A stretch of DNA of 64,000 bases, taken from a virus. Lineage: Duplodnaviria; Caudoviricetes. A program made the position numbers and the translations under genes. The stretch is taken from IMG/VR virus record IMGVR_UViG_3300021255_002694. The stretch is one strand, 5' to 3'. The notes under the pieces were generated by a model. The model did not search any database, was not told the origin of the DNA, and saw nothing but the letters and a program-made list of their open reading frames with translations. Positions 28,004 to 61,216 of this stretch are shown piece by piece (within the stretch, counting starts at the first letter, position 1; each line of letters begins with the position of its first letter).

Positions 28004-28471
28004 ATGAAATTGTTTATTAGAGAAAGCAATATAGATGAATCAGCACAAGATGAACTCTATAGAATTGCAGAGTATGAACTATTACCAGAAACACAACTAT
28101 ATAAGATATCAGAGCGTTGTACTATTGATGAAGATACTTTTGATTTTACTCAAACTGGTACTGCTTGGGGCGGATATATCTGTTATGATATCTATATGGA
28201 GTGGACTGCTGAGTATCTACCGAGAATAGAGGATTTTTATAGAGATAATATTGATGATATTTGGCATAGAGATTGGAAACTGGATGAAATTAAAATATAC
28301 TTTAATATCCATGTTGATGGCGATAAAGTTACTGTAGAAATTGCAGATATGGATATTGTAGAACCTAAAAATTTTGAAAAAGTATTTGATCTTGATGCTC
28401 TTTGTGATGCAATTAGAGAAATTGCTGAAAATTCTGCTAACTATATTCATTCTAAGATCGGAAGCTATTAA
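28004..28471 (+). CDS. MKLxIxE-tagged protein (candidate virion internal protein)
   Basis: Starts MKLFIRES; acidic. Confidence 0.7.
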   Translation: MKLFIRESNIDESAQDELYRIAEYELLPETQLYKISERCTIDEDTFDFTQTGTAWGGYICYDIYMEWTAEYLPRIEDFYRDNIDDIWHRDWKLDEIKIYFNIHVDGDKVTVEIADMDIVEPKNFEKVFDLDALCDAIREIAENSANYIHSKIGSY

Positions 28472-28490
28472 AAATTGGCGGTGATGTAAA

Positions 28491-29039
28491 GTGAAACTTA
28501 TTTTTGAAACTGTTTATGATGTAAACAAAGTTAAAAATCTTATACTGAAACACTTGACAAAATACTATTTTGATAGTTGCGGCGGATATGGAATATCAAA
28601 GAAACAGCAAACAGATTTTGCAAGAGAAGATGCATTAAAAACAATGAATTCAAATGTTGCATATGATGATGAATTTCTCCAAGAAGTTGCTGATTTCTTA
28701 AATTCTATAAGTTATCCTGTTACAGTATATAGAGGTCTTGCAACAGATAATATAAATGACATAAAAACAGGAATTAAATCAGGTGTTCACTGGACTATTG
28801 ATCCGGAGTATATAAAGAATCAAACTAATTTATTACACTTTAAGTATGTAATGATCGGAAAATTCAATGAACAAGATATTGACTTTGAAAAGACTGCAAA
28901 TACATATCTACATTATTCTCTAAATGATCAAAAACATAGATATAATAAATCTCGTGAGATGGAGATATGGGTGAAACAGCGTAAAGAACCAAAAGACCTT
29001 GAAATAGTAACTTTTGAAGATTTCTGTAAGAACTATTGA
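28491..29039 (+). CDS. tagged protein, ADP-ribosyltransferase-like (R-S-E type)
   Basis: Starts MKLIFE; TVYRG, GVHWT, EMEIWV motifs in ART order. Confidence 0.6.
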   Translation: MKLIFETVYDVNKVKNLILKHLTKYYFDSCGGYGISKKQQTDFAREDALKTMNSNVAYDDEFLQEVADFLNSISYPVTVYRGLATDNINDIKTGIKSGVHWTIDPEYIKNQTNLLHFKYVMIGKFNEQDIDFEKTANTYLHYSLNDQKHRYNKSREMEIWVKQRKEPKDLEIVTFEDFCKNY

Positions 29040-29085
29040 TCACATTCAGGAGTTAGGTCTTTGATTAAACACATACATATTACAC

Positions 29086-29117
29086 AAAAATCTGCACATA
29101 TCTTTGTGCAGATTTTT
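29086..29117 (+). terminator. intrinsic terminator (near-duplicate at 61226)
   Basis: AAAAATCTGCACA / TGTGCAGATTTTT. Confidence 0.75.
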
Positions 29118-29140
29118 CTTTATATTTTTCAGGAAAAGTA

Positions 29141-29175
29141 TTGACAAAAAGAAATAAATATGATATACTATATTT
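29141..29175 (+). promoter_or_regulatory. sigmaA-type promoter P7
   Basis: TTGACA-N17-TATACT-ATATTT. Confidence 0.85.
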
Positions 29176-29332
29176 GTAAAGAGAAAACAGATTATCTGTA
29201 GAGTGCGCATTATATAGATGATTTGCCAGTATCTAATCCAGATATTCTGGTACGGTGTGTAGTTTTAAGTGTGGTTAAAATGACAGGTGACTGCGTTGGC
29301 GGTTCAACTCCGCCCACATCGTTTCTATTTAC
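29176..29332 (+). ncRNA. structured RNA containing an anticodon-less tRNA-like domain (29253-29322)
   Basis: Acceptor CGGTGTG/CACATCG, D-arm with GG, T-arm GGCGG-TTCAACT-CCGCC; anticodon arm reduced to CAG-GTGA-CTG; two upstream hairpins; 5' and 3' ends complementary. Confidence 0.55.
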
Positions 29333-29461
29333 TATATTTTGAAAGTGAGGAATGTGTGTATGACTGATATCATTAAGCTGAGATGTGGTATTCTTAGTTT
29401 ATCCAACTATTAAATTTAGTGAGTATTGTAATTATCCGGTTTATTTTAAGGAGGGTTGATT

Positions 29462-29773
29462 ATGACGATCTATATTGTTGAAAAATATAATGGTGAAAAT
29501 AGTGGTAATTACTCTTTCATTGCATCCTATATGACATTTGAGGGTGCTTTGAAATGTGTACAATCTGCATATAGAGATCATGTTCATGAAGATAATGTTG
29601 TATACTGTCATTATACAATCCCAAATGATAAGAATGCATGGTCTAATATTATTCACGGACTCCCAGATTCTAGTGAAACTAACTGGTTTCGTGTTTCGTG
29701 CGAATACCGACTGCCTTGGCTCACAGAAGATTCCAGATACATTATCACAAAAACCGACCTGACTGGTGAATGA
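29462..29773 (+). CDS. hypothetical protein
   Basis: GGGAGG RBS. Confidence 0.65.
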   Translation: MTIYIVEKYNGENSGNYSFIASYMTFEGALKCVQSAYRDHVHEDNVVYCHYTIPNDKNAWSNIIHGLPDSSETNWFRVSCEYRLPWLTEDSRYIITKTDLTGE

Positions 29774-29790
29774 TTGAGGGGTGTCACAAC

Positions 29791-30042
29791 ATGAAAGATT
29801 TTATTGGATACATTATCATCATCCGCACATTTAGCGGAGAAACCTATTATGTGAATTCGTATTGTGAAGTACCAACTCTTTATACCTATGTTCATCCTAA
29901 ATATATTAAGATTTTCAAGACAAAACAGGATGCTAAAAAATTTATGGATTTAAACATCAAAACAATTCAGGATGAACTTGATTTTAATTATTTTTACATT
30001 GAGAAAGTTTATCGTTATGAAAACGGTTTGATTGATGTTTGA
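29791..30042 (+). CDS. hypothetical protein
   Basis: GAGGGG RBS. Confidence 0.6.
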   Translation: MKDFIGYIIIIRTFSGETYYVNSYCEVPTLYTYVHPKYIKIFKTKQDAKKFMDLNIKTIQDELDFNYFYIEKVYRYENGLIDV

Positions 30043-30055
30043 GGTGGAATTAAAA

Positions 30056-30583
30056 ATGAAAAATAAGCCTGATCTGAAAGAACTTACAAATCTTCTCACT
30101 AGAACTCGTGAGGAACTTGAATCTGTGACAACAGAATATTTCTGCGTTGCAACTGCTGTTGCGAATAAGAGAGCAGATATTATCTCTAAAGACATGTTCT
30201 ATCTGCTTTTCTACGATGCATGGTTCGATGAACATAGAAACGGTAAATCTGATGATATGAGGAAACTCATTGAAAATGCTGTTGGAAGAGAGGTTAAAAA
30301 CCTTACTTTCGGCAGAACTGAGTGGAATACTCTAAATGTAGATTTTACAGACTCTAAAACAGGCTACAGGTATTCTATTCAGATTCCGGCAGATGTATTT
30401 AGGTGCTGTGATGTTGAATACGATATTGGTGATACAGAAAGACTTATTAACTCTATTGCAATCAAACTGTATAGAGTTGTAGATAACGGCACTATCACAT
30501 ATAACACCATTATCTCTTTCCCGAACAGTGAGTTTGACTGTGGTGTAAGAGATCAGATCAACGGATTTTTCGATTCTATCTGA
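30056..30583 (+). CDS. hypothetical protein, tandem paralog of 30669
   Basis: CVA....K.D.I..DMFY.LF..AW shared. Confidence 0.75.
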   Translation: MKNKPDLKELTNLLTRTREELESVTTEYFCVATAVANKRADIISKDMFYLLFYDAWFDEHRNGKSDDMRKLIENAVGREVKNLTFGRTEWNTLNVDFTDSKTGYRYSIQIPADVFRCCDVEYDIGDTERLINSIAIKLYRVVDNGTITYNTIISFPNSEFDCGVRDQINGFFDSI

Positions 30584-30590
30584 AAAACAC

Positions 30591-30625
30591 TTGACAAATC
30601 TTTACAGATACGGTATACTATATTT
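30591..30625 (+). promoter_or_regulatory. sigmaA-type promoter P8 (palindromic)
   Basis: TTGACA-N17-TATACT-ATATTT; TTGACAAATC / GATTTGTCAA arms. Confidence 0.85.
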
Positions 30626-30668
30626 GTAAGGATTTGTCAAACTTAAAACTTAGAAAGTGAGGATAAAT

Positions 30669-31193
30669 ATGAAGTACAATCTTAATGATCTTATGAAAAA
30701 TCTCTGTGACACAAAGGCTACGATCAAAGACAATACGATTACATTCTACTGTGTTGCAGATAGAATTGTGCGGACAAAGAGTGATCTTATTGAAAACGAT
30801 ATGTTCTACAAGCTGTTTGTTGAAGCATGGAATGAAAGCATCAATGGCAACGATTTTGAAATGATCAAGTTGCTGTCTGATGCTACTGGTAAAACTGTTA
30901 CTGATGTTCAGGCGTACAGCACGGAGCGTGTTGAAAGAAATGTTGATTTCAAGGTTGATTGTGATGAATCGACATATTCTATTGCTGTTCCGATTCTCAG
31001 GAGCAAGAAACCTGTAGATGAGGTTCCGTTTGAGTATGTTGAAAGCTATATTAAATCTTTTGAGATCAGGCTTTACAAAGTAAATGCCGGAAGAACTACT
31101 ACATATGAAAGACTTTCTGCATTTCCGTGTTCTGATTCTGACGCAACTGCAAGAGAGATTATTCGTTACTGGTTTGCTGCAAATAACAGCTAA
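30669..31193 (+). CDS. hypothetical protein, tandem paralog of 30056
   Basis: GAAAGTGAGG RBS; see 30056. Confidence 0.75.
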   Translation: MKYNLNDLMKNLCDTKATIKDNTITFYCVADRIVRTKSDLIENDMFYKLFVEAWNESINGNDFEMIKLLSDATGKTVTDVQAYSTERVERNVDFKVDCDESTYSIAVPILRSKKPVDEVPFEYVESYIKSFEIRLYKVNAGRTTTYERLSAFPCSDSDATAREIIRYWFAANNS

Positions 31194-31238
31194 CATCACG
31201 TAATCACTAAATTAAAATAATTTTTTTTTCAAAAACAC

Positions 31239-32272: not shown

Positions 32273-32303
32273 TCAATGTGGTAAGTGTATCTTATCACAT
32301 TGA
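32273..32303 (+). promoter_or_regulatory. hairpin preceding tagged-gene cassette 2
   Basis: TCAATGTGGTAAG-TGTAT-CTTATCACATTGA. Confidence 0.55.
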
Positions 32304-32326
32304 ATTTTTATATGGCGGTGAGAGTA

Positions 32327-32623
32327 ATGGTAAAACTAAATGAAGCATTCATGGAAACAGATAATGGTACAATAAGAGAATATCTTGATACTATGGATGA
32401 TATAAAAAGAATGCTTGGTGATACTGATTGGGATTTTGATTCTGTTATGAGTGAAGATGCTGTAGCTATTCTTGAAGATATGGCAAATTCAGATCGCGGA
32501 ATTGTAAAACTTGGAAAAGTCATTCAATCTGCTAAGAATATGAAAAATGCTATTGAGGATGCTAATTTTGAACTTGATGGTATTTATGAATTACTTGCAG
32601 ATTGGGGCAATTTAGGACTTTGA
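32327..32623 (+). CDS. tagged protein variant (MVKLNE)
   Basis: GGCGGTGA RBS; first gene of cassette 2. Confidence 0.6.
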   Translation: MVKLNEAFMETDNGTIREYLDTMDDIKRMLGDTDWDFDSVMSEDAVAILEDMANSDRGIVKLGKVIQSAKNMKNAIEDANFELDGIYELLADWGNLGL

Positions 32624-32633: not shown

Positions 32634-33053
32634 ATGAAACTAATGATATGTGAAAATAGTTTCTCTAAAAGAGAGATCAGCGATCAGGTAAAAGATTACA
32701 TGGAGCGTTTCTGTGATTCAGTTGAATTAGCTTTTAGTGATAATCCTGAGAAGTTTGGTATTGAGGATGAAAGCGAAGAATATTATATCTTTGCAAATGC
32801 AATTAGAAAGCAACTTTCTCCAATGCTTAAATTGATTGGAAAATCAATAAGCTACGATAGGAACATGAAAATTCCAAGACGATTATCAGATAAAGTTAAA
32901 GAATATTTATCCGGAAAACTGTACGATGCTTTGGAACTAAGTGACTATGATCTTGATAGATATGAACTAGAGCCTGATACTGATAAATATGATTATTTTT
33001 GTTCTCAGCTTAATAAGTATATAAAGTCCATGCTGAGATATATTGAAAGATAA
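32634..33053 (+). CDS. MKLxIxE-tagged protein
   Basis: Starts MKLMICEN. Confidence 0.7.
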   Translation: MKLMICENSFSKREISDQVKDYMERFCDSVELAFSDNPEKFGIEDESEEYYIFANAIRKQLSPMLKLIGKSISYDRNMKIPRRLSDKVKEYLSGKLYDALELSDYDLDRYELEPDTDKYDYFCSQLNKYIKSMLRYIER

Positions 33054-33071: not shown

Positions 33072-33599
33072 ATGAGACTTATGATAAAGGAAGATGATAG
33101 TCACATTCCAGATAAAAGCAAATATATACTGTATACTAGAGACAGTATATCAGAGTTTGATAATTATGAAGATGCTGTTGATGCATATAAATCTTTTCAC
33201 GGAGAAAAATTTTTATATCAACCAGATAAGAGGTACTTCGCTGTAACCATTTCATCAACTGGATTTGAAAGTGGTAGGAAAACTACATCAAAAGTGCATG
33301 TTATATTTATTGCAAAAAACTTAAATCAGATTAAAAAATTCTTATTAAATGATGTTGATTGGCATTATCCTGGGTATAATCCATTAGATTATAGTAAGTA
33401 TCGTGTATATATTGGTGGTTATGGTTCAAAACCTGTTTGCAGTGATATTGATTGGGAAGGGTTCAATAATGAAATTCGTGGATATTTACAAGGTATTTTA
33501 TATCCACGATATCTTGAAAAAGATTTTGGAGTTATTGATGTATCTTCTCCACCAAGCGGAATACAAGGTGCAAATGATATGCCGTTTAAGTATTGGTAA
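33072..33599 (+). CDS. MKLxIxE-tagged protein
   Basis: Starts MRLMIKED. Confidence 0.7.
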   Translation: MRLMIKEDDSHIPDKSKYILYTRDSISEFDNYEDAVDAYKSFHGEKFLYQPDKRYFAVTISSTGFESGRKTTSKVHVIFIAKNLNQIKKFLLNDVDWHYPGYNPLDYSKYRVYIGGYGSKPVCSDIDWEGFNNEIRGYLQGILYPRYLEKDFGVIDVSSPPSGIQGANDMPFKYW

Positions 33600-33619: not shown

Positions 33620-33741
33620 ATGAAACTTAGAATTTGTGAATCAGATATGAAATTGAAGTTGAAGCAGATCAGTATGACTATTTCTGTTCACAAGTTCATA
33701 GATATGTTAAATCTATGTTAAGTTAAATTGAAAAAAAATAA
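33620..33741 (+). pseudogene. internally deleted, frameshifted paralog of 32634
   Basis: MKLRICES tag followed in shifted frame by RYEIEVEADQYDYFCSQVHRYVKSMLS*IEKK, matching the 32634 C-terminus RYELEPDTDKYDYFCSQLNKYIKSMLRYIER. Confidence 0.75.
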
Positions 33742-33756: not shown

Positions 33757-34002
33757 ATGAAACTTATGATAAGAGAATCATCTTTTATGGAAGATGATTG
33801 GTCTACAGAGATTGGAAATTATGTAATTTCAATGTCTTGGAATAGTAATTCTCGTGGCGGTTCATATTCAGTTGAAGTATGTGAAAAACAGTCAGATGGT
33901 CTATGTGGCTATCCACTATATAAAAATACATATGCAACAGAAGAACAAGCCAGAAGAATGTATAAGAAAAGAATTAAACAAGCTGAGAGAGGGGAAATCT
34001 AA
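33757..34002 (+). CDS. MKLxIxE-tagged protein
   Basis: Starts MKLMIRES. Confidence 0.7.
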   Translation: MKLMIRESSFMEDDWSTEIGNYVISMSWNSNSRGGSYSVEVCEKQSDGLCGYPLYKNTYATEEQARRMYKKRIKQAERGEI

Positions 34003-34003: not shown

Positions 34004-34402
34004 ATGAAACTAACAATTAGAGAAGAATTTGATGGCGATGAATACCGTGATTCAGACGGATATCTAACAGAAGATCATGCAGATTATCTTGAATGTCAAA
34101 TAACACTTACGGTTGCAACATTTACAGAAGATGTAAGAATAATTAGAGAGTATATTATTGATGAAGTTCTGCATTCTCGTGATTGCAATAGAATTTCTCT
34201 GCATGACTATAAGTTAATTGAAAGAAATAATGAACTTGTTAGTCTTGATGGCGATCCGTATATGTTTGATGGTCAGGGTGTTGTTGATCTAGTTGTAAGA
34301 TTCTCTGTTGATGATAACGGTGAATATGACTTTAATGAATACGGATTTGACGAAGCTATTGAAGAAATACAAAGATATTTACGTGGTGAAAGGTTTGTGT
34401 AA
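34004..34402 (+). CDS. MKLxIxE-tagged protein
   Basis: True start MKLTIREE at 34004 (ORF track extends to 33854). Confidence 0.7.
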   Translation: MKLTIREEFDGDEYRDSDGYLTEDHADYLECQITLTVATFTEDVRIIREYIIDEVLHSRDCNRISLHDYKLIERNNELVSLDGDPYMFDGQGVVDLVVRFSVDDNGEYDFNEYGFDEAIEEIQRYLRGERFV

Positions 34403-34404: not shown

Positions 34405-35073
34405 ATGAAACTATTTATTGAAGAAGTAGATACTCTTGATTGGGTTGGAAAAGAGTATAAAGTTGGAATGGCAAAATATAATGCTGATGTAACATTTAAG
34501 CGCGGTGGGATTACATACTTTATTGAGTTCCTTGATCCATACGGTTCTAATATGCTTGCTAAGTGGTGGGATAATTCTGATAATGGTGTAGGATATAACA
34601 ATCAGGGTTATGTGTTTGTTGATAATCCGTTTAACCGGATGACTGGTTATTTCTCTCCTGAGAACATTGACGAGTACATTAAAGTTGATTCTGATTATGG
34701 CAGAAAACCATCAATGTCAATCCAAAGAATTCTCATAGATAAAGTAAAAAGACAGCTTGACTACGATGCTCTCAATGATGTAAAAAGCACATATAGGGGA
34801 GAATCATACAATAGAAAAACATCAAGCAGAAGAATAACAGAAGCTAGGCGTGGACTGTTGACACAGGAAGAATATGATTACTGGTTCAATGTTGGATTAA
34901 ATGCGTTTGAAAATGGAGATAAGGCTGTTCCAGCACATAGTAAAGAGATCAGAGATTATATGAAAGAAAACCCATCCATGATAGGATCAAAAGAATCAAA
35001 GAAAACAGATAAAATCATTAAGGCATGGATTGATGGCTGGACATATGGAAATCTTAAAGTAGATATTGACTAA
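34405..35073 (+). CDS. MKLxIxE-tagged protein
   Basis: Starts MKLFIEE. Confidence 0.7.
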   Translation: MKLFIEEVDTLDWVGKEYKVGMAKYNADVTFKRGGITYFIEFLDPYGSNMLAKWWDNSDNGVGYNNQGYVFVDNPFNRMTGYFSPENIDEYIKVDSDYGRKPSMSIQRILIDKVKRQLDYDALNDVKSTYRGESYNRKTSSRRITEARRGLLTQEEYDYWFNVGLNAFENGDKAVPAHSKEIRDYMKENPSMIGSKESKKTDKIIKAWIDGWTYGNLKVDID

Positions 35074-35098: not shown

Positions 35099-35686
35099 AT
35101 GAAATTAAATATTACAGAAAAAACATCAAATGCAGATATTCTTGATTCTATTGAAGCAAATGCAAAAGCAATTCTTGATAAAGTAGAATCTATCAGAAAA
35201 GGTGGACTTGATGATTATAATTCAAGTATTTTGAAGAAACAGAAAAAGGCTTTGATAGACGTTAATTCCGCACTTAGTAATGTTGCTTCTTATGCTTCTG
35301 CATATACAAAAGAGGACTATGGAAGAATGTGCAAGAAGTCTGTTACTGAGGGTGATGCATCTAAAAAGACGAATTACGCTGTTATGGTAAGAAATATGAG
35401 TAAAGGAACATATAATCTTTACACTGGGACTAAAGCAAAGTGTGAAGAATTACTTGACGTTCTTGAATCACTTGAATCTCTTGCGACTGAGTGTGAAGAT
35501 GAAGATGAATATTGTTGGGAAGAAGCATATGCTATTGATCTAATGGATGACTATGGATGCATTGAAGAAATATACTATAGAATGATTGATGAAAATGATA
35601 ACTACAATCTTGCAAACCACTACGGTGATTATGGTCAAATTGTTCACATTATAAATGCTGATGCTCCTGTTGATCTATACCTATAA
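35099..35686 (+). CDS. MKLxIxE-tagged protein
   Basis: True start MKLNITEK at 35099, GGAG RBS. Confidence 0.7.
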   Translation: MKLNITEKTSNADILDSIEANAKAILDKVESIRKGGLDDYNSSILKKQKKALIDVNSALSNVASYASAYTKEDYGRMCKKSVTEGDASKKTNYAVMVRNMSKGTYNLYTGTKAKCEELLDVLESLESLATECEDEDEYCWEEAYAIDLMDDYGCIEEIYYRMIDENDNYNLANHYGDYGQIVHIINADAPVDLYL

Positions 35687-35752: not shown

Positions 35753-35787
35753 TTGACAAATCATCGTTTTAATGGTATACTATGTTT
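35753..35787 (+). promoter_or_regulatory. sigmaA-type promoter P10
   Basis: TTGACA-N17-TATACT-ATGTTT. Confidence 0.8.
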
Positions 35788-36345: not shown

Positions 36346-36825
36346 ATGCATAACTTTAAGGAATCTTTTACCACTGATAATGCAATTATCGAACAGTGGA
36401 TGCGTGATATGTGCATCAAGTTTGATAATGATAGAAGCGTTGAACTGCATGTTCAGCCGAGAGGAAATAGAATCTTGTGCTATGTTCTAAACACGCATAA
36501 TGGAAAAACATTTAGATGCATTGTTCCGCAGTATATGAGTACATATGGAATTGCACGATGCTATGCCCGTTCTATCGGGCAAAAAGTAAAGACACTTGTA
36601 ACACAAGTTAGCATGGAGACTGCGTTTCAAAATCATGAATTTATTTGCAGACCTATTTATTATGTGACAAATGCTGCCGGAGTAACACGCACAGAACTCG
36701 GAAAATATAAATTATATTGCGGTGATGATGCAAAGCAGATTGCAGAAGATGCTCTAAATCTAAATACATTGTCAGATAATAATACGAAATTTTATATCAA
36801 AACAACACATATTTATGATCTGTAA
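36346..36825 (+). CDS. hypothetical protein
   Basis: AAAGTGAGG RBS. Confidence 0.7.
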   Translation: MHNFKESFTTDNAIIEQWMRDMCIKFDNDRSVELHVQPRGNRILCYVLNTHNGKTFRCIVPQYMSTYGIARCYARSIGQKVKTLVTQVSMETAFQNHEFICRPIYYVTNAAGVTRTELGKYKLYCGDDAKQIAEDALNLNTLSDNNTKFYIKTTHIYDL

Positions 36826-42791: not shown

Positions 42792-43088
42792 ATGCGACTT
42801 ATGATAAACGAAAGTGATTACAGATCGTGTAACCTAACATTTGAGAAACTACAGGCAGACCAATATGATATACTATGTAACGGTGAATCAGTTGGAACAA
42901 TATACTGCCGCAGTTACTATAGCAATACTAGAAACCGTGTATGGACTGTTTTTGTTGAACTTGATTCATTCAAAGAAGACGATACTGCTTCATCTGTGGC
43001 TGATGCAAAGAATGTTGCAAAACGTCTTTGGCTTGAACTTAAAGATAAGGTAGATAGATGGAACAGAAGCATGGGGAGTGATGTATAA
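42792..43088 (+). CDS. MKLxIxE-tagged protein
   Basis: True start MRLMINES. Confidence 0.7.
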   Translation: MRLMINESDYRSCNLTFEKLQADQYDILCNGESVGTIYCRSYYSNTRNRVWTVFVELDSFKEDDTASSVADAKNVAKRLWLELKDKVDRWNRSMGSDV

Positions 43089-43864
43089 TGAAATTATATT
43101 TTGAAAACATAATTACCGATCTTAGAAAGAATGGAATAAAAATATCACAAGATATGTTTGATGCTATAAATGAGTTTGTTGATATACAGAACTCTTTTGC
43201 AAGACCTGTTAATGTTGATAGGTGGCAAGATGTTAAAGGTAAGACTGTCCTGTTTACAGAGAACGGGAATATTGTTGCTGTATATGGTAACGATAAATTT
43301 ATGTACAATCCAAATAAATTAAAGATTAGCCAAGCACCTGAGTATGATATATTTGAAATAGAAGTTCTTGGAACACATGTTCAAAATCGCCGTCAGGAGC
43401 GCAGAGACTACTTAAAAGGTCTTACAAGAACATCCGATTCACCATATTCAAATACTCCAAAATCAACAACCTATATATGGGATAAGGACTGGAATCCGGA
43501 AGTAAATAAAGCATATTATTCTAAACTGTTACAGCGCAATCATTTGAATAAATACGCACAGCAACTTGAAGATGCTTATGATGTAGTAAAAGATATGATA
43601 GATCAGCGTAAGGAGCGTCTTACAGGAAAAAGAACAGAGTATGATCGTATGATTACAGATATATCAAGACAGATCGGTAAGATTGAAGATGAAATGATAG
43701 CTGCTGAGAGAGACTTTTCTTTCGATGTTGACAAACTTAAAAAAGAAATATCTAAACTGCCAAACCTTGTGAATAAGGCAAAAGAGTTCATGGAGACTGA
43801 GGAAAAAGAATATAAGTATTGGGGCAAGCGTAAGAAGATTCCGTATGATAAAATAGAAAAATGA
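43088..43864 (+). CDS. tagged protein (MKLYFE variant), C-terminal coiled coil
   Basis: Starts MKLYFEN; TAATG overlap. Confidence 0.7.
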   Translation: MKLYFENIITDLRKNGIKISQDMFDAINEFVDIQNSFARPVNVDRWQDVKGKTVLFTENGNIVAVYGNDKFMYNPNKLKISQAPEYDIFEIEVLGTHVQNRRQERRDYLKGLTRTSDSPYSNTPKSTTYIWDKDWNPEVNKAYYSKLLQRNHLNKYAQQLEDAYDVVKDMIDQRKERLTGKRTEYDRMITDISRQIGKIEDEMIAAERDFSFDVDKLKKEISKLPNLVNKAKEFMETEEKEYKYWGKRKKIPYDKIEK

Positions 43865-43896: not shown

Positions 43897-43931
43897 TTGA
43901 CAAAACAGTTAAAATGTGATATACTATATTT
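43897..43931 (+). promoter_or_regulatory. sigmaA-type promoter P13
   Basis: TTGACA-N17-TATACT-ATATTT. Confidence 0.85.
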
Positions 43932-44384: not shown

Positions 44385-44957
44385 GTGAAACTAATGATAA
44401 GAGAAGATAGACTATCAATGTTGTCGGAAAGTGTCTTTTATAAGGCACTCCTTGAATTCCTCACGAAGGATACAGAGATAAAATACGCTGATGATTATAT
44501 TGATAACTTTGATAAGTCGAAGAAACAGAGGTATGCAAAAGAATACCCGATCAGAGACATTAAAAATGACATTGCATCATTCATTGATGATTGGCTGAAA
44601 GAAATTAAAAGAGATTGTGATATATACTCTATGAAGAATAATCGTATGTCTGATTCATATGGATTTTCTAATTATATTACTCTTTCATTTAATCGTCCGG
44701 CAGATCGTAGATTATACCAATTCTATCAAGATAACAGCGAAAAATATAATAATGTAAAATTTAGATTTTCAGAGCATGATCCTAAAAATGACACATCCGA
44801 TATTGCCGATAGTGTGAACTTTGTCGGAAAGACGTTTAATCAGGCAGCAGATGAAATGAAGTGCAAAATTGAAAACTATGTAATTGATTTAAGATCAGCA
44901 GAAAAACAATATCTTAAAAAGCTAGATAAACAGGCAAAGAAAAAGAATCGGCGGTGA
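44385..44957 (+). CDS. MKLxIxE-tagged protein, paralog of 60662
   Basis: GTG start MKLMIRED; YGFSNYITLSF..P...FRFSEH. Confidence 0.7.
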   Translation: MKLMIREDRLSMLSESVFYKALLEFLTKDTEIKYADDYIDNFDKSKKQRYAKEYPIRDIKNDIASFIDDWLKEIKRDCDIYSMKNNRMSDSYGFSNYITLSFNRPADRRLYQFYQDNSEKYNNVKFRFSEHDPKNDTSDIADSVNFVGKTFNQAADEMKCKIENYVIDLRSAEKQYLKKLDKQAKKKNRR

Positions 44958-44962: not shown

Positions 44963-45247
44963 ATGATTATACTTGAAAATAAAACGATCGAAAAAGACAT
45001 ATTTGATTCTATAATCAGAACAGTTAAAACAAATTTCAATAAAAACAATTTCAGTTTTGATATTGATATCACTGATACTGTCAATATCTGGTGCGATAAC
45101 GATAAAGATAAAACAGTGTTTATTCAAACACAGGATGAAGATTCATACGCAACATTTACAAAGGATGATCTTGATAATGTTGATGAGGCGGATATAAAGG
45201 AGAGCATTGAATATCAGCTTAATGCAACCGGATCAGAGAATGAATAA
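44963..45247 (+). CDS. acidic protein, possible short-tag variant (MIILE)
   Basis: GGCGGTGA RBS as in other tagged genes. Confidence 0.55.
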   Translation: MIILENKTIEKDIFDSIIRTVKTNFNKNNFSFDIDITDTVNIWCDNDKDKTVFIQTQDEDSYATFTKDDLDNVDEADIKESIEYQLNATGSENE

Positions 45248-46140: not shown

Positions 46141-46398
46141 ATGTTCTATGTAAGAAAAATCGGCAAAGAATACAAGGTTTCAGAAGTTCAATCTAGTGAG
46201 GATTCAGGTGAGTTTGAATCATACATTGATGCGTACATATATGCCAAAGAAATGAGCGGCAATATCAGTCTTGAAAAATATAAAGAGGTAAAGTCTGACG
46301 AATATATGTACAGTCATCTTATAGATTCAGACACAACTGAATTAGAAAAAGACTTAAACAATTATTCAAAAAAGAAACGTGGTGAAAACAAAAAATGA
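46141..46398 (+). CDS. hypothetical protein
   Basis: ORF in operon. Confidence 0.55.
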   Translation: MFYVRKIGKEYKVSEVQSSEDSGEFESYIDAYIYAKEMSGNISLEKYKEVKSDEYMYSHLIDSDTTELEKDLNNYSKKKRGENKK

Positions 46399-48434
46399 CA
46401 GTAGATTACTCACGAGAGATAAATAAACTTGTAGAATACCTAAATACATGCAGAGATCAGTATTATAATCACAATAATTCTATTATCACAGATAAGCAGT
46501 ATGATGATCTATTTGATCGGCTAAAAGAACTTGAAGAAGAATCAGGCATCATTCTTTCAAATTCTCCTACACAATCAGTAGGATATAATGCTGTAAGTTC
46601 ATTGCAGAAAGTTAAACATGAGGAAAGATTACTCTCTCTTGATAAGACAAAGAGCGTTTCTGATGTTTTAAAGTTCTGCGGTACAAAGAATGTTATCTTC
46701 ATGCATAAGATGGATGGACTTACTGTCGATCTAACATATGTTGACGGAAAGATCACACAAGCACTTACTCGCGGCGGTGACGATGGATACGGTGAAGATA
46801 TCACGCATAATGTAAAGTCAATTCTTGGTATTCCAACAACAATTCCAGTTAGCGGAAAGGTGCATATTTCCGGCGAAGCAATTATAACATATAAAGATTT
46901 TCAGTATATAAATTCTGGATTGAAAGAACCATATAAACATGTTAGGAATTGTGCAAGTGGAAGTGTTAGACAGTTTGACAGTGCTATCTGCGCACAAAGA
47001 AAAGTACGTTTTATTACATGGAATGCAAACGATCTATCAAAGAATGGAACAATGATGTCTGGACTTGATGAAGCTGATAAACTAGGATTTATTACAGTAT
47101 TTCGCAGAGGCGGAATGTCTGTTTCACGTATGATTGAAAAAGAGATTGCTGAAATCTTTGATAGTTTCAAGAAACGTGCTGAGATGTTAAGTTATCCTAT
47201 TGATGGAATTGTTATTATGTACGATAACATTGCATATGGTAAATCTTTAGGATCAACAGCACATCACCCTAGATGTGGTATTGCATATAAATTCTACGAT
47301 GAAACAGTTGAATCAAAGCTAAGAGGAATTGAATACTCAATAGGTAAAACAGGTGTTCTAACTCCTGTTGCTATATTTGATCCGAGAGATATTGACGGAA
47401 CTTCTGTGTCAAGAGCATCACTTAGCAATATATCTGTTCTAAAGTCTACACTAAATGTTGCATTTGATGGTCAGATTGTAAACATATCAAAAAGAAACGC
47501 TGTTATTCCGCATATTGAAAGTGCTGATATTAGCGGAATCACTCTTGGAAGTAAAGTATTTACAGTTCCAGATAAATGTCCGTGCTGCGGAGAACCAACA
47601 GCTATTGTAACAGACAGCAATTCTGGTGTCGAAACACTTGTTTGCACTAATAATAAATGCTCCGGCAGACTACTTAAAAAGTTCTCAGCGTTTGTTTCAA
47701 GAAGTGCAATGAATATTGACGGAATGTCTGAAAAAACTCTTGAAAAGTTTATTGACATGGGTTTGCTAAATACATATTCAGATATTTTCAGATTGAAAGA
47801 TTTTGCCGATAAAATTGTATGCCTTGACGGTTTTGCTGAAAAGTCTGTTACAAAGATGCTTGATTCTATTGAAAATGCAAAAAATACAACTCTTGTAAGG
47901 TTGTTTGTTGCACTAAATATTGATGGTATCGGCAAACAGACAGCAAATGATCTATCAACATTTTTTGCCGATAATCCTGAAAATGTACTGAAAATGAAAA
48001 CATCTGAAATTAGAGATAAACTAATTCATGTTGACGGATTTGGTGAAACTCTTGTTGATTCTATATGCAAGTGGCATGATTCAGATGAAGATATGAGTGA
48101 GTTCAGAAATCTACTCAGCTATATCACGATTGAAAGTACACCAGATCAAAAGTCAGATGTTCTAAATGGTCTAAAATTTGTTATTACCGGAAGTTTGGAA
48201 ACATATAGGAATAGAAACGATCTTATTTCTGATATTGAGAAAAATGGTGGAAAGGTACAATCTTCTGTAAGCAAAGAGACTTCATATCTTATCAATAATG
48301 ATGTAAATAGTACATCTGGTAAAAATAAAAAGGCAAAGGAACTTGGTGTTTCGATAATTTCAGAGAAAGATTTTGTACGTCTTTTGAACGGCAATCAGCC
48401 GCAAAAATCTGTAAAAAAGAAAGGGTTGTTTTAA
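46395..48434 (+). CDS. ligA: NAD-dependent DNA ligase
   Basis: KMDG adenylation motif, TRG, OB fold (GKTGVLTPV), Cys4 zinc finger, HhH, C-terminal BRCT (FVITG...GG..SVSK.T). Confidence 0.95.
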   Translation: MTVDYSREINKLVEYLNTCRDQYYNHNNSIITDKQYDDLFDRLKELEEESGIILSNSPTQSVGYNAVSSLQKVKHEERLLSLDKTKSVSDVLKFCGTKNVIFMHKMDGLTVDLTYVDGKITQALTRGGDDGYGEDITHNVKSILGIPTTIPVSGKVHISGEAIITYKDFQYINSGLKEPYKHVRNCASGSVRQFDSAICAQRKVRFITWNANDLSKNGTMMSGLDEADKLGFITVFRRGGMSVSRMIEKEIAEIFDSFKKRAEMLSYPIDGIVIMYDNIAYGKSLGSTAHHPRCGIAYKFYDETVESKLRGIEYSIGKTGVLTPVAIFDPRDIDGTSVSRASLSNISVLKSTLNVAFDGQIVNISKRNAVIPHIESADISGITLGSKVFTVPDKCPCCGEPTAIVTDSNSGVETLVCTNNKCSGRLLKKFSAFVSRSAMNIDGMSEKTLEKFIDMGLLNTYSDIFRLKDFADKIVCLDGFAEKSVTKMLDSIENAKNTTLVRLFVALNIDGIGKQTANDLSTFFADNPENVLKMKTSEIRDKLIHVDGFGETLVDSICKWHDSDEDMSEFRNLLSYITIESTPDQKSDVLNGLKFVITGSLETYRNRNDLISDIEKNGGKVQSSVSKETSYLINNDVNSTSGKNKKAKELGVSIISEKDFVRLLNGNQPQKSVKKKGLF

Positions 48435-55758: not shown

Positions 55759-56280
55759 ATGCGTAATGTTTTCCACGTTTCTCTGGACGCATATCTTAAT
55801 GGCGTTACTTTTAATCCAAGAGTTCCGGAAGATGCATCAAATGCAGCAAGAGATTACTTTGATAGTGATACTGGAACTTTTGAAAATACAAAAGCAGAGC
55901 GAGTTTGTTTTTCAAAAACAATCAATGGTGCATTAAATGCACTATCATGTGTACTATCAAGAAATAACCCGGTTCTTATGTTTGATCGAGTTTATGTTTA
56001 TATTCCAGAAAAAGATTTCAGATCGTATAAGCATAAGACAAATCGTAAAATCATAAGAGACAAAGATGTGTTTGATGCAAATGTAACAGGAGAAGTGTGG
56101 ATTACTGAGCCTGTAAAACTAAAACTGTATGCCGTGATCAATGTTGACGGAATTAAATATGTTAAAAACAAGAAATGTGTTTCTGATCGTTTTGGATATA
56201 GACATAAACGAAAGTATTTTAACTATAAATTCCATTATATTTTATCACCGAAAGTTGTTAAGAGAGGGTGTTCGGATTGA
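55759..56280 (+). CDS. phage protein, possible ART-like fold
   Basis: FHVS, FNPRVP, RVCFSKTINGAL, DANVTGEVW. Confidence 0.5.
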   Translation: MRNVFHVSLDAYLNGVTFNPRVPEDASNAARDYFDSDTGTFENTKAERVCFSKTINGALNALSCVLSRNNPVLMFDRVYVYIPEKDFRSYKHKTNRKIIRDKDVFDANVTGEVWITEPVKLKLYAVINVDGIKYVKNKKCVSDRFGYRHKRKYFNYKFHYILSPKVVKRGCSD

Positions 56281-56498
56281 ATTACAGGAAAAGGAAGAAA
56301 CTTAGTCGCATTGCTAAGTCACATGGGTTCGATCATTATTATATGTGGAAACGGTATGTAAAGCTGTCATGTGTACTGCAACCAAAAATTAAAGAGTTCT
56401 GCCCAAACTCAACGATAAATGTTCCGAAATCATTTTGGAATTGCTTTTGGATTTGTAAGGGCAGACCAAATCACATGATTGGCGGACAGAGTTCATAA
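56268..56498 (+). CDS. basic small protein, tandem paralog of 56505
   Basis: MFGLNYRKRKKLSRIAKSHGFDHYY. Confidence 0.7.
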   Translation: MFGLNYRKRKKLSRIAKSHGFDHYYMWKRYVKLSCVLQPKIKEFCPNSTINVPKSFWNCFWICKGRPNHMIGGQSS

Positions 56499-56504
56499 GA
56501 AAGG

Positions 56505-56747
56505 GTGCTTGGATTGAACTGGAAGAAAAGAAAGAAACTTAACCAGATTGCTAAATCACATGGATATGACCATTACTATCTATATGAACAACACATGAAA
56601 TTTTCATGCAAGGTGAAACCAAAGTTAGAAAAGTTTTTTGCCACAAGAAAACTGGACACGCCGTACTATTTTCTATATAGCAGTGTTAAAATGAGACATT
56701 TTTGTGACTTAGATTTGCACAAACCGAATAACATGATCTGTTGGTGA
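56505..56747 (+). CDS. basic small protein, tandem paralog of 56268
   Basis: MLGLNWKKRKKLNQIAKSHGYDHYY. Confidence 0.7.
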   Translation: MLGLNWKKRKKLNQIAKSHGYDHYYLYEQHMKFSCKVKPKLEKFFATRKLDTPYYFLYSSVKMRHFCDLDLHKPNNMICW

Positions 56748-56752: not shown

Positions 56753-57088
56753 ATGAATAAACGAAAGAAAAAGAAGATTATCAATAGGAACGGATTTCGT
56801 AAATATAGCAATTACAAGCTATATAAAGCTATTGATGAATTTTGCATTGATAAGTACGGAAAAGACGTTTATGATAGATTTAGAGTAACAAATGAAACAA
56901 AAGGATACAAAAGAAATATGATATTTGTAAAATATAAAAAGAAAATTGATTACAAACATATTTCCGATGTAAGCTGCTTTTTCGATGTTATTCCATATGG
57001 TCCTAGTCCATTTCAAAATAAACCAGAAGAGTTCATACATACTGTAAAAAATGGTGGTGAAAATAGTGGATTACCGAACAATAGTTGA
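56753..57088 (+). CDS. basic hypothetical protein
   Basis: MNKRKKKK start. Confidence 0.6.
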   Translation: MNKRKKKKIINRNGFRKYSNYKLYKAIDEFCIDKYGKDVYDRFRVTNETKGYKRNMIFVKYKKKIDYKHISDVSCFFDVIPYGPSPFQNKPEEFIHTVKNGGENSGLPNNS

Positions 57089-57692
57089 TCAGAGATTCAA
57101 AGAGTATCGTGTAGAAAACAAGACAAGAGTAGATCACCTGTCCAAAATTAAAAATGATTTTGGTGATGCTGTTTTTAAGTTTACGGTCTATAAATTCAGC
57201 ATTAAAGTACCAGCATCAAAAGATATTGACTCGTCTTATAATACTACAATGAAGCTATGTGAGATAATTGATAAGATGGGGCATTATAAATACGATACAG
57301 AAGATATAACAGGGGTTCGTTTGCCATACCCATCTAAAAAGCGAATTATTTGTTCGATTAGATTTAATGTTAGTTCATTTACAAGCGTTGTTGTAACTGC
57401 ATATGAGGGTAATCTTTTTCATATCTATTTTCAAACAGAGAGCCTCGATGTTCATAATAAAACCACAGAATTTTACTTCTATAAGAATTTCATATCCATA
57501 TTAGATAAAGATGTTAAAACTGCTAAACTCTCCGATATAGGATATGATAGTGAGGAATGCAGAGATATGTGTGAAGATGTATATGCCATGTATGTATATT
57601 TATTCGGGCAAGTTTACAGAACAATCAATAACTGTACATTTGAATGCTCTGAATACAATGCCTTTAAGAAATATATAACGGTTGATCCGTGA
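57051..57692 (+). CDS. hypothetical protein, tandem paralog of 57705
   Basis: DFGDAV, YKN.I.I..V.TA.L.D, YA..YL.G..Y shared. Confidence 0.75.
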   Translation: MVVKIVDYRTIVDQRFKEYRVENKTRVDHLSKIKNDFGDAVFKFTVYKFSIKVPASKDIDSSYNTTMKLCEIIDKMGHYKYDTEDITGVRLPYPSKKRIICSIRFNVSSFTSVVVTAYEGNLFHIYFQTESLDVHNKTTEFYFYKNFISILDKDVKTAKLSDIGYDSEECRDMCEDVYAMYVYLFGQVYRTINNCTFECSEYNAFKKYITVDP

Positions 57693-57704
57693 AGGAGTAA
57701 AAAC

Positions 57705-58376
57705 ATGGAAAGACAAGTTCTTAAAAACACTATATACAGTCATATAAAAGATTTATCAGATTTTGAGAAATCAAAAATTGATAAATACAAGACTATAAAA
57801 CTTGATTTTGGTGATGCTGTATGTGATTTTGTCAAAAAGCAATTTCAGTACGATTCAAAGAAGATGCAAAAATACGAAAATGCAATCAGACTTATGTTAG
57901 ATGTCTGTGATTACGTTATGTTAGATATTTGTGATGACATTAGACTGTATGATTGGATTGATGCTACTGGCGATGTAGACATCCTAAAAAGCGAAACCGT
58001 ATGCTCTCTGATGTTTACATCAACAACAGTTACAGGCGATAAAATTATTGTATCGTTGCTAAGAGACTATCGGATCGCTGTTATATTTGCTAAAATTGAT
58101 CATTCACCACTCGGTTTTAAAACTAAGATCATGAGAGCATTATGTCCTAGATATATAACATACTATTATAAGAATTATATTTTGATTGGTAATGATACTG
58201 TTGAAACAGCTAGATTAAAAGATTCTTTTACTCTTGAAGATAGATTACTTTCGATGAATGAATTAACATACGCTAAGTTTATCTATCTTTGGGGAAAAAT
58301 TTATCAGTATGTCACTAAAAAAGACTTTACTGACGAATACAAGGCATATGCAAACCATATTGATGCAAAACCGTGA
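57705..58376 (+). CDS. hypothetical protein, tandem paralog of 57051
   Basis: See 57051. Confidence 0.75.
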   Translation: MERQVLKNTIYSHIKDLSDFEKSKIDKYKTIKLDFGDAVCDFVKKQFQYDSKKMQKYENAIRLMLDVCDYVMLDICDDIRLYDWIDATGDVDILKSETVCSLMFTSTTVTGDKIIVSLLRDYRIAVIFAKIDHSPLGFKTKIMRALCPRYITYYYKNYILIGNDTVETARLKDSFTLEDRLLSMNELTYAKFIYLWGKIYQYVTKKDFTDEYKAYANHIDAKP

Positions 58377-58391
58377 AAGAGGTGTTACATA

Positions 58392-58817: not shown

Positions 58818-58835
58818 AAAATAAGGAGATTATAT

Positions 58836-59231: not shown

Positions 59232-59242
59232 GGGCTAACGCA

Positions 59243-59683
59243 ATGAGATTTTATAACAACCATGACGGCAAAATTTACAGAGAAATAGAAGAATATATAA
59301 ATAAATTCTATCTTGACTGTAAAACATGCATAAAAGAAACTATTGTAACAATAAGATTTCCAAATGATACTGATGAAACATATTTATTTATTGATCCAGA
59401 TAGATTTGATGGTTGTGGATGGTTGACTTGTGCAGATGATTATGTAGAATCAGAATCATATGTAGATGTTGTTGGATTTGTACCAGTTGATAACATACGA
59501 GTAGTTGGAGATCAGATTGTTTGCGATTTCAAAGAGTTTTTACCGCCTGAACTTGTAGACTTTTACTGGAAATATCTAGGAATCGAGAAACCGAAAACTG
59601 TAGCAGAAGCAATAGATGAGTGCAACAAAGCACTGAAAGATAAACCAGAATTAGATTTTTCAGTGGTAAAAATGATAAAGTAA
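59243..59683 (+). CDS. hypothetical protein
   Basis: GAGGG RBS. Confidence 0.65.
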   Translation: MRFYNNHDGKIYREIEEYINKFYLDCKTCIKETIVTIRFPNDTDETYLFIDPDRFDGCGWLTCADDYVESESYVDVVGFVPVDNIRVVGDQIVCDFKEFLPPELVDFYWKYLGIEKPKTVAEAIDECNKALKDKPELDFSVVKMIK

Positions 59684-59694
59684 ATAACTATATA

Positions 59695-59719
59695 AGCGGT
59701 AGATTTATGATCTGCCGCT
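59695..59719 (+). promoter_or_regulatory. hairpin (TTATG loop) preceding tagged GNAT gene
   Basis: AGCGGTAGAT-TTATG-ATCTGCCGCT. Confidence 0.55.
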
Positions 59720-59746
59720 ATTCTTATATATATGGAGTTGATTTAT

Positions 59747-60163
59747 ATGAAACTTAGAATTATGGAATCTAATGATATCAATATTCGGAAAATCATGTTC
59801 CCGAGTGATGAAGCTAATGAATATTTAAAGCATGAGGATGAAAATGAATATCTCACCGATATAAATAAAACTTGTATTGGAGAACTAATTGTAAACGATG
59901 ATAACGGTGAGTTGATTGGAAAGGTATTTGTCTATAAGAAGAAGTATCCAGGATTTATCTTTAATGTCGAAACTAAGCCGAAATATAGAGGAAAAGGTTT
60001 TGGAAAAATGCTTGTAGATGATGCAGTTAAAAAACTAGGCGGGTATGATCTAACAGTAAAGAAAACAAACTATAGAGCAATTCAATTATATAGAGACTAC
60101 GGGTTTGAAATTATATCTGATGGAAATGATGAATCAGAATGGTACATGAAACTGGAAAAATAA
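59747..60163 (+). CDS. MKLxIxE-tagged GNAT acetyltransferase
   Basis: Starts MKLRIMES; acetyl-CoA motif PKYRGKGFGKML; N..AIQLYRDYGF. Confidence 0.85.
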   Translation: MKLRIMESNDINIRKIMFPSDEANEYLKHEDENEYLTDINKTCIGELIVNDDNGELIGKVFVYKKKYPGFIFNVETKPKYRGKGFGKMLVDDAVKKLGGYDLTVKKTNYRAIQLYRDYGFEIISDGNDESEWYMKLEK

Positions 60164-60178
60164 TTTTTCAAAATCCTC

Positions 60179-60213
60179 TTGACAAATCAGAATAAATATG
60201 GTATAATATATTC
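60179..60213 (+). promoter_or_regulatory. sigmaA-type promoter P17
   Basis: TTGACA-N17-TATAAT-ATATTC. Confidence 0.85.
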
Positions 60214-60230
60214 TGAAAGAGGTGACATGT

Positions 60231-60662
60231 ATGCTGAATCTTAGAGATGATTATAAGAAAAATCTTGTTAGAAGCCTTGAATATATTATTGATCGCAACG
60301 AAGATATTGAAGTAGATATGAATAATAATAACAGAGATTATCTTGATTCTATAGAGATCATTGATTTTAAGTTTCATCGACACAGGGCGTATTGTCATGT
60401 TGTATTCCTGTGCGGAAAATACTATAAAGTAGATGCATTCATGAAAGTTGAGGATGCAAAATTCATTCTTAATAATATTGATAAGATTGAATATGTGTAC
60501 AATATTGATAAGATGTATGATACGATTCTTGGAGACTTACTGGACTTATATATAAAATATAATACAAACGGATACAGATATATGGAGTTCATGATGAAAT
60601 TTAACGATCTTTTCACAAAAGACGATGCAATTAAATTTTTTGAGAAAGGTGATAATTTATAA
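60231..60662 (+). CDS. hypothetical protein
   Basis: GAGGTG RBS after P17. Confidence 0.65.
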   Translation: MLNLRDDYKKNLVRSLEYIIDRNEDIEVDMNNNNRDYLDSIEIIDFKFHRHRAYCHVVFLCGKYYKVDAFMKVEDAKFILNNIDKIEYVYNIDKMYDTILGDLLDLYIKYNTNGYRYMEFMMKFNDLFTKDDAIKFFEKGDNL

Positions 60663-61216
60663 TGAAACTATCAATAAGGGAGTCAGATAACAACGGTAAT
60701 TTTATAATTTACATTGACATGTTGCCGTTTTTAGATGTTAAAGACAACATACAGTTACACGAAGATGATATACAGCCAGATCATGTATTCTCTAAAGATA
60801 AAAAGTATGACAATGAATTCGATACAAGGCAGTACATTTTGGCAAAATATATAGCACCATTTGCAAAAAGACTTGTTGAAGATTTTGATTTTGTTGTTGA
60901 TTATGATGCACACTCATCTAGTGAAGGTAACTATGGTCTTTCAAACTATCTGACTCTAACATTTGAACATCCAGACAATATAACCGAGAGCGAACTTGAA
61001 GAAACGTATATGTACACAATTAGATTTTCTGATCACGAAAATAAACATCCAGAATTAGGTGCTGTTGAAGAAGTTGATATGACTGATATGAAAGCATCCA
61101 ATTTGATGAAAGCTGGAATGAGAGTGTTTAAAAGAAAACTAAGTGATGTTCAGAGGAACATAGCGAAATTTGAAATTGAAAAATTTGGAGAACAACAAAC
61201 ATTTTTCGATATGTAA
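60662..61216 (+). CDS. MKLxIxE-tagged protein, paralog of 44385
   Basis: Starts MKLSIRES; YGLSNYLTLTF..P...IRFSDH. Confidence 0.7.
   Translation: MKLSIRESDNNGNFIIYIDMLPFLDVKDNIQLHEDDIQPDHVFSKDKKYDNEFDTRQYILAKYIAPFAKRLVEDFDFVVDYDAHSSSEGNYGLSNYLTLTFEHPDNITESELEETYMYTIRFSDHENKHPELGAVEEVDMTDMKASNLMKAGMRVFKRKLSDVQRNIAKFEIEKFGEQQTFFDM

Follow-up and report, generated by a model that had tools for sequence, protein, structure and literature searches.

A short N-terminal leader shared by mostly unrelated proteins of an uncultured rumen jumbo phage: a candidate capsid-targeting and cleavage sequence

The window analysed here, a 64,000-nucleotide stretch of a Caudoviricetes genome (IMG/VR record IMGVR_UViG_3300021255_002694), contains between positions 28004 and 61216 a series of genes whose products begin with the same short N-terminal leader, typically MKLxIxE and hereafter called the tag, and then diverge. 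It corresponds to ENA SHIW14-1 scaffold_7 (323,500 bp) from position 231,161, with 2 mismatches across the overlaps; its G+C content is 33%, and nearly all of its genes lie on the + strand. Joined to three more stretches of scaffold_7, the window gave a set of 92,340 bp and 199 proteins in which leaders were counted, and 94 kb of the genome of a sister phage, MUNK18-1 scaffold_3 (319,545 bp), was walked. Gene starts were called from the Shine-Dalgarno score and the type of start codon only, and the tag was never used for this purpose.

All tagged genes of the window are on the + strand. The first cassette is headed, after a hairpin, by an open reading frame (ORF) of 155 aa without a Pfam or PHROG match (28004-28471; MKLFIRE/S, the slash marking here and below the proposed cleavage after Glu), followed by a 182-aa ORF with a GTG start and a short form of the leader (28491-29039; MKLIFE/T). 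The latter is the last gene before a terminator-like hairpin (29086-29117) and a TTGACA-N17-TATACT promoter (29141-29169), a type of boundary that closes each tagged cassette and whose other promoters lie at 35753, 43897, 45308 and 61282. The second cassette, also after a hairpin (32273-32303), opens with a tag-like ORF of 98 aa (32327-32623; MVKLNE/A), which resembles the ..LKLNE/S of the phage's own head protease described below. It continues with tagged ORFs of 139 aa (32634-33053; MKLMICE/N) and 175 aa (33072-33599; MRLMIKE/D), a 33-codon remnant of a tagged gene with a weak ribosome-binding site (33620-33721; MKLRICE/S), and tagged ORFs of 81 aa (33757-34002; MKLMIRE/S), 132 aa (34004-34402; MKLTIRE/E), 222 aa (34405-35073; MKLFIEE/V) and 195 aa (35099-35686; MKLNITE/K), the last of them immediately before the promoter at 35753. 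Further along, a 98-aa ORF (42792-43088; MRLMINE/S) and a 258-aa ORF with a short form (43088-43864; MKLYFE/N) end a run of genes before the promoter at 43897, and a 190-aa ORF with a GTG start (44385-44957; MKLMIRE/D) and a tag-like 94-aa ORF (44963-45247; MIILE/N) end the run before 45308. The final pair consists of a GNAT acetyltransferase of 138 aa, again preceded by a hairpin (59747-60163; MKLRIME/SND; Pfam Acetyltransf_1, 44.8 bits), and a 184-aa paralogue of 44385 that is absent from the sister genome (60662-61216; MKLSIRE/S) and is the last gene before the promoter at 61282. The 16 leader starts listed by the original prediction were all present and read as claimed, with corrections of detail: 28491 and 44385 begin with GTG, and 33620 is a remnant only.

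The strict leader pattern (^M[IV]?[KR][LIVM].[IVLF].E) was matched by 11 window genes, and shortened forms (MKLIFE, MVKLNE, MKLYFE and MIILE) begin 4 more. In eight of these 15 full tagged ORFs the assigned start is the earliest one possible after the preceding stop codon; in the others it lies 3-14 codons downstream of that point (50 codons in 34004), in each case with a Shine-Dalgarno match. In the 92-kb set, the core of the pattern, [KR][LIVM]x[IVLF]xE, was found at residue 2-3 in 13 of the 199 proteins, against 0.10 expected from its internal rate (7 matches in 27,038 positions), an enrichment of approximately 126-fold. Occurrence at mere background frequency had been named beforehand as the outcome that would speak against a functional leader, and the observed frequency is far above it. 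Shortened forms in five further proteins (MKLIFE, MKLYFE, MVKLNE, MIILE and MKLIVES) bring the total to 18 tagged genes in 92 kb, arranged in at least eight cassettes, and the following 60 kb in the sister genome add approximately 19 more. Positions 1-28,000 of the window contain no strict leader. A narrower pattern (^M[KR]L.[IF].E) had no match when all in-frame starts were allowed in approximately 1 Mb of sequence from about 55 other phages, and its DNA equivalent had none in the 222-kb Bacillus phage SP-15. The residue after the leader Glu is Ser in 9 of 19 tags, relative to a background of 6.5% (p = 1e-6).

Within the leader, four codons are used for Leu (TTG, CTT, CTA and TTA) and two for Ile (ATT and ATA), and the regions upstream of the tagged genes have in common only a general Shine-Dalgarno sequence that is present on untagged genes too. 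Because these codons vary freely and the upstream regions are alike in nothing more specific, selection on the leader acts at the peptide level. The bodies behind the leader are mostly unrelated by blastp, Pfam and PHROGs. The sole blastp link among the tagged proteins joins 44385 and 60662, at 29% identity over 138 aa. The tagged proteins are acidic on average (D+E 18.9% versus 16.3%), and their isoelectric points do not differ from those of untagged proteins. Weaker leader-like starts at window positions 36346 (MHNFKE/S), 38780 (MTIYE/N) and 63643 (MEIIE/D) may be divergent tags or chance matches, and a 234-aa protein encoded on scaffold_7 beyond the window (L062:17321-18025) begins with two tags in tandem, MKLIVES and then IKLKISES.

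In the sister genome, the largest tagged block is followed directly by a T4-type head module. Its four genes, in the order known from T4, encode a portal, a protein of 151 aa, one of 608 aa and the major capsid protein, and hmmscan of these head genes returned Portal_T4 (176 bits), Peptidase_S77 (43.6 bits; cut-off 27) and Gp23 (117 bits). Residues 1-170 of the 608-aa protein form a protease of the T4 gp21 family, and the remainder is a coiled-coil scaffold; a protein 99% identical to this fusion (P0246) is encoded on the window's own 323,500-bp contig. The presence of a gp21-family prohead protease was the second test named in advance, and the phage does encode one, with an S77 match and intact His and Ser motifs: GELDHP and GVSSRG, corresponding to the His and Ser motifs of T4, are invariant across the protease family. 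Among cultured phages, its best matches are in Bacillus SP-15, Listeria LIS04 and Streptococcus GXN1, followed by weaker matches to T4-like gp21 proteins. Upstream of the sister portal gene, an 810-aa Walker-A protein (L081:12715-15147) contains an intein (Intein_splicing, 42.8 bits); this terminase-like ATPase is probably the large terminase.

The motif at the end of the tag recurs in this protease-scaffold protein. The scaffold part of the 608-aa protein contains 11 hydrophobic-x-Glu-Ser sites, compared with 1.64 ± 1.22 in 2000 shuffles, and Ser follows 11 of its 22 hydrophobic-x-Glu triplets versus 3 of its 29 other Glu residues. The scaffold sites VVE/S, FxE/S, ILE/S, LSE/A and IVE/S are fixed down to 54% identity in a coiled coil that otherwise diverges. 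The T4 scaffold gp22, annotated as degraded by gp21, has a similarly site-rich appearance. The protease itself begins with MPQVLIE/T, followed by ..LKLNE/S, and its T4 gp21 counterpart, ..PQLLIE/T, is the 'LIE-9' logo site (PMC9026906). In the N-terminal region of the capsid protein, KLAE/R, AAE/S and MICE/A occur upstream of a conserved PNLIA block. The head-core and internal proteins of T4 (NC_000866) have short leaders of the same design, which read MKTYQEFIAE/A in ipII and ipIII, MKTFKE/F..ITE/A in ipI, MAKINELLRE/S in gp24, MEGLIE/A in gp67, MLLIPE/T in gp68 and MLKE/QLIAE/A in gp22.

Sites of this kind also occur inside proteins. Near the head module, paired sites enclose basic linkers (..FSE/SKRVRSNRTIKE/S.., ..VTE/SKRKVARKPIRE/S.. 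and ..LPE/GIQRKRSKRPVKE/S..), and internal sites preceded by basic residues number 10 there, compared with 2.4 ± 1.6 expected; in the window's own 92 kb they are not enriched (3 versus 3.1 expected). Complete tags were found internally as well, with MKLEIRES at residue 120 of a 315-aa protein (scaffold_7, L062:18042-18989), where the context ..EENMKLEIRES.. is conserved in the sister genome, and with MKLMIKEN and MKLSIKES in sister-genome proteins. We rejected these internal tags as proof of cleavage because each has a Shine-Dalgarno-like sequence upstream, and internal initiation or recent gene fusion would explain them equally well.

Of the two activities proposed for the window's cargo in the original prediction, the GNAT assignment of 59747 is firm (Acetyltransf_1, 44.8 bits, cut-off 20.7; Acetyltransf_7, 40.9 bits, cut-off 27). 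The ART-like (ADP-ribosyltransferase-like) assignment found no support: Pfam profiles (E up to 0.01-0.1) linked none of the tagged window proteins to an ART family, and neither did PHROGs for the proteins scanned there, with sequence profiles only and no fold-level search. Apart from the GNAT, no tagged window protein received a function from Pfam, PHROGs or Atlas, and Atlas feature searches of two of them (34405 and 43088) gave nothing. The 17-kb tagged block of the sister genome, which follows tail-fibre genes, a diversity-generating retroelement (DGR), a lysin and small genes, includes two S-adenosylmethionine (SAM) lyases, two DUF3293 proteins, a SprT-like protein and several multi-domain proteins. 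Beyond these types and the GNAT, the tagged proteins are ORFans. SAM lyases act against restriction in phage T3.

Orthologs of the GNAT in the sister phage and a Logan contig (70-72% identical) start at the GNAT beta-1 strand and are without the ten extra N-terminal residues, MKLRIMESND, of the window protein. In an AlphaFold2 model of the latter (shallow alignment; mean predicted local distance difference test score, pLDDT, of 66), residues 1-8 are the only segment with pLDDT below 50 and lie outside the fold, whose first strand spans residues 13-18. Homologues of a tagged sister-genome SAM lyase at 52-53% identity all keep M1, K2, L3, I5 and E7, while the x positions vary and the spacer after Glu varies in sequence and length; a distant homologue (35% identity) has no tag. 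A 102-aa tagged ORFan retains the tag in three genomes. Because the GNAT has untagged orthologs while the SAM-lyase homologues conserve the tag, these comparisons identify the tag as a separable add-on module.

The layout of the cassettes was as first described, with tagged genes at the ends of gene runs: 6 of the 18 identical TTGACA-N17-TATACT promoters in the 92 kb come directly after a tagged gene (p = 0.004), and the first gene after such a promoter is never tagged. Tagged genes are promoter-distal, and some follow hairpins. These identical promoters probably form one class that splits the gene array into short operons. Fifteen identical promoter-like sites lie on the + strand of the window, at 2664, 6588, 12383, 15112, 22964, 29141, 30591, 31239, 35753, 38702, 43897, 45308, 52285, 53185 and 61282. 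Nearly all are intergenic and 18-84 nt before a gene; those at 29141 and 53185 are further away, and 53185 falls inside a called gene. Several TTGACA-N17-TATACT sites have an extended TG. With 14 copies in the 92 kb, the T4 late-promoter word TATAAATA is not enriched; since approximately 15 occurrences are estimated from base composition, it is uninformative on the timing of expression.

Taken with the comparison to T4, these observations suggest that the leader corresponds, in this phage, to the capsid-targeting sequence (CTS) of T4, and that the tagged proteins are loaded into the head, trimmed and delivered with the DNA, a reading to which we give a probability of roughly 0.6. The head would be built in the manner of T4, from a gp20-like portal, a gp21-family serine protease fused to the coiled-coil scaffold and a gp23-like shell. 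Leader-bearing proteins would join the scaffold core during prohead assembly, and the activated protease would then cut after Glu in hydrophobic-x-Glu sites followed by Ser, Asn, Asp or Ala, destroying the scaffold, trimming the capsid protein and stripping a leader of 6-8 residues off each cargo protein. The trimmed cargo would remain in the head and enter the cell along with the DNA. That the tag is a cleavage leader is the best supported step and, with several independent in-silico lines behind it, quite probable. As gp21-type proteases act inside proheads, which is established for T4 and carried over here by analogy, loading into the capsid would follow from cleavage, and we regard it as somewhat probable. 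Injection and an anti-defence role of the cargo have slightly less than an even chance; for the SAM lyases such a role is plausible. The capsid address that was originally proposed is in this way supported in part, by the enrichment, the gp21-family protease, the scaffold sites, the T4-like leaders and the modularity of the tag.

Several points weigh against this reading. The match to a cleavage site does not by itself prove targeting; in T4, the residues needed for targeting overlap only in part with those needed for processing. The evidence for the head module comes from the sister genome, and in the window's own genome the protease alone was confirmed. At 6-8 aa the leader is shorter than the 10 aa of T4, and alignment to T4 leaves the maturation site of the capsid protein ambiguous among KLAE/R, AAE/S and MICE/A. 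The cargo here is acidic on average, in contrast to the basic character reported for internal proteins in T4 relatives, and the tagged set, with 18 genes in 92 kb, is very large. Finally, at least 44385 and 44963 belong to an operon with a host-type (sigma-A-type) TTGACA-N17-TATACT promoter, which suggests that this operon is transcribed early.

The leader might be a true prohead-protease site on proteins that are accessory parts of the core or scaffold, cut and expelled or retained as head filler, rather than on active effectors. The same site marks the scaffold, which is itself destroyed, many tagged proteins are small acidic ORFans without an enzyme domain, and the largest tagged block adjoins the head genes. 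Several tagged proteins are, however, enzymes with intact domains (the GNAT and the SAM lyases), which are unlikely filler, and most have the site only at the extreme N-terminus, so that cleavage would leave the body whole. We consider this explanation unlikely.

Similarly improbable is a function without cleavage, in which the leader would be an amphipathic beta-strand motif that docks on a hub such as a chaperone, a ClpXP-type unfoldase recognising it as an N-degron, or an inactive protease paralogue, and would control stability or localisation in the cytoplasm. The Met-basic-hydrophobic pattern does resemble published N-terminal motifs for ClpX, and a candidate for a catalytically dead prohead-protease-like protein is present. 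This is a 149-aa protein encoded beside a NADAR gene at scaffold_7 305,432-305,881, approximately 10 kb past the end of the window, with a score of 18.1 bits (below the cut-off of 21) for the HK97-type prohead protease family Peptidase_S78, in which other residues seem to occupy the places of the catalytic His and Ser (..LLGYSRD.. and ..FGFALYG..); it is possibly an inactive protease paralogue, as described for SPN3US. An invariant Glu followed by Ser is nevertheless foreign to ClpX motifs, yet enriched in the protease's own scaffold, and inside proteins the motif forms pairs of sites that flank basic linkers.

The shared start could also be a by-product of cassette turnover or of optimised translation initiation, a functionless peptide inherited along with the ribosome-binding site and first codons. 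Tagged genes do sit at operon ends, where accessory genes insert, the internal tag copies retain upstream Shine-Dalgarno-like sequences as fused genes would, and AAA is generally a favourable second codon. This origin is very doubtful, however, given that K2, L3, I5 and E7 are fixed while synonymous codons vary freely and the x positions vary, and that the upstream likeness extends to untagged genes; nor would it explain why Ser comes after the Glu or why the scaffold sites match. Equally hard to sustain is descent of all tagged proteins from one highly diverged paralogous family with the tag as its conserved first beta-strand: 44385, 60662 and one sister-genome relative do have a common N-terminal ..FYxALLEYL.. 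region, but the bodies include an unrelated GNAT fold, SAM-lyase folds and a SprT-like domain, and the GNAT fold is complete without the tag.

The host of this phage is probably a Gram-positive rumen bacterium, because of both the bins of distant relatives and the lysin domains of the sister genome (Peptidase_M15_3, GH25 and PG_binding_1). A scan of genome contigs recovered only relatives that are 57-58% identical in one protein, binned with metagenome-assembled genomes of Ruminococcus or Oscillospiraceae. A near-DNA search of a cultured-phage collection found no close relative of the window, nor did the ligase, a 291-aa protein or the exact tag-coding pattern recover one from IMG/VR, the best match being 58% identical. 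Family searches for S77, S78, the HK97 capsid and terminase in distant IMG/VR relatives, together with a terminase homology search, did not reach the head genes of this phage; an abundant clade at 65% identity dominated the matches in these head-gene searches.

The principle proposed here is known from T4, in which the first ten residues of IPIII are enough for packaging, gp21-family proteases cleave after Glu, and the internal proteins of T-even phages are diverse with the CTS as their only common feature; jumbo phages such as SPN3US have approximately 50 head proteins (PMC3012670, PMC5694885, PMC9026906). The tag resembles the T4 CTS of IPI, IPII, IPIII and Alt, which gp21 removes, in its Met-Lys start and hydrophobic-x-Glu end on otherwise unrelated proteins (PMC3012670, PMC9026906), and the surrounding systems are alike in having a gp21-family protease, a gp20-type portal, a gp23-type capsid protein, variable cargo genes and a site-filled scaffold. 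They differ in the consensus (MKLxIxE/S here versus MKTYQEFIAE/A), in leader length (6-8 versus 10-19 aa), in the number of tagged genes (dozens versus about five), in a cargo that here has many acidic members and some enzymes (GNAT, SAM lyase), in the fusion of protease and scaffold in one 608-aa protein and in the probably Gram-positive host. The variable internal-protein sets of T-even phages are likewise swappable cargo united only by a leader, and have been read as an arms race with restriction systems (PMC3012670, PMC9026906); reviews describe a handful of such proteins per phage, whereas the tagged cassettes here number at least eight in 92 kb. The jumbo phages phiKZ, 201phi2-1 and SPN3US, with proteases such as gp175 and gp245, also have gp21-family enzymes that cut after Glu, many processed and ejected head proteins, redundant propeptide sites and a diverged protease paralogue (PMC5694885, PMC9026906). 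Their cleavage motif has Ser, Ala or Gly rather than a hydrophobic residue at P3, however, and their propeptides, on 8-19 processed proteins, usually span 20 to >100 residues with no uniform short leader (PMC5694885, PMC9026906).

Among cultured phages, the protease has its best match in Bacillus phage SP-15 (Thornevirus), whose own fusion of protease and scaffold is 28% identical over 90% of the protein; SP-15 likewise has a portal and a capsid protein of the T4 type, and it infects a Firmicutes host. SP-15 differs in that no protein starts with MKLxIxE and approximately four carry a different leader, xIxF[LV]RE/. These SP-15 leaders, at 15673, 192624, 195365 and 196812, read MPITFLRE/N, MIQFLRE/S, MAIQFLRE/A and MSIKFVRE/G, one of them just upstream of the terminase, and represent a candidate capsid-targeting leader in a cultured phage. 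The Dar antirestriction proteins of phage P1 are also anti-defence proteins that are packaged in the head and injected; their loading follows an ordered protein hierarchy and is not known to involve a shared short N-terminal leader. What is new relative to the T4 principle is a consensus of its own, the fusion of protease and scaffold in a jumbo phage whose host is probably Gram-positive, the number of tagged genes and a cargo that includes enzymes.

Five local pairs of small untagged paralogues (26-47% identity) at window positions 30056-31193, 56277-56747, 22479-24518, 57051-58376 and 62411-63521 point to frequent tandem duplication in this region. In the sister phage (L076:11666-17222), a 1212-aa DUF6273 fibre, a 139-aa protein and a reverse transcriptase (RVT_1) look like a complete DGR, and scaffold_7 ends just before the region that matches it. 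Sister genomes (L048:1-973, L073:3404-5195) also contain insertions of IS605-type OrfB/TnpB (Cas12f-like) elements, one with a resolvase, and of HNH or NUMOD homing endonucleases, which scaffold_7 lacks at the same places. The window further encodes an NAD-dependent DNA ligase with a BRCT domain (46395-48434), whose best phage matches are approximately 42% identical, and a UvrD-like helicase with a possible PD-(D/E)XK tail (9662-11533), both of them ordinary untagged replication or repair genes.

Injected phage proteins are at work ahead of all phage gene expression, which makes them prime candidates for a first-strike counter-defence, and they are normally found only through virion proteomics of cultured phages. 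If the leader is a capsid address, injected proteins could be listed from sequence in an uncultured 320-kb rumen phage lineage, giving dozens of new candidates that are mostly ORFans, with SAM lyases and a GNAT among them. A bolder version, which we put forward only tentatively, is that the tag is a plug-in address for a large and fast-changing capsid arsenal of perhaps 60-80 proteins, approximately one fifth of the genes, including SAM lyases, the GNAT and polyproteins that are cut within the capsid into effectors and basic peptides. A simple N-terminal pattern would then list the injected proteome of uncultured phages, and a catalytically dead protease paralogue might read the tag. If the capsid-address reading is true, the tag, at only 7 residues, would also be a candidate address for packaging foreign proteins in capsids, and the T4 capsid-targeting principle would reach Gram-positive jumbo phages, at a scale unreported in the T4, phiKZ and SPN3US literature that we examined.

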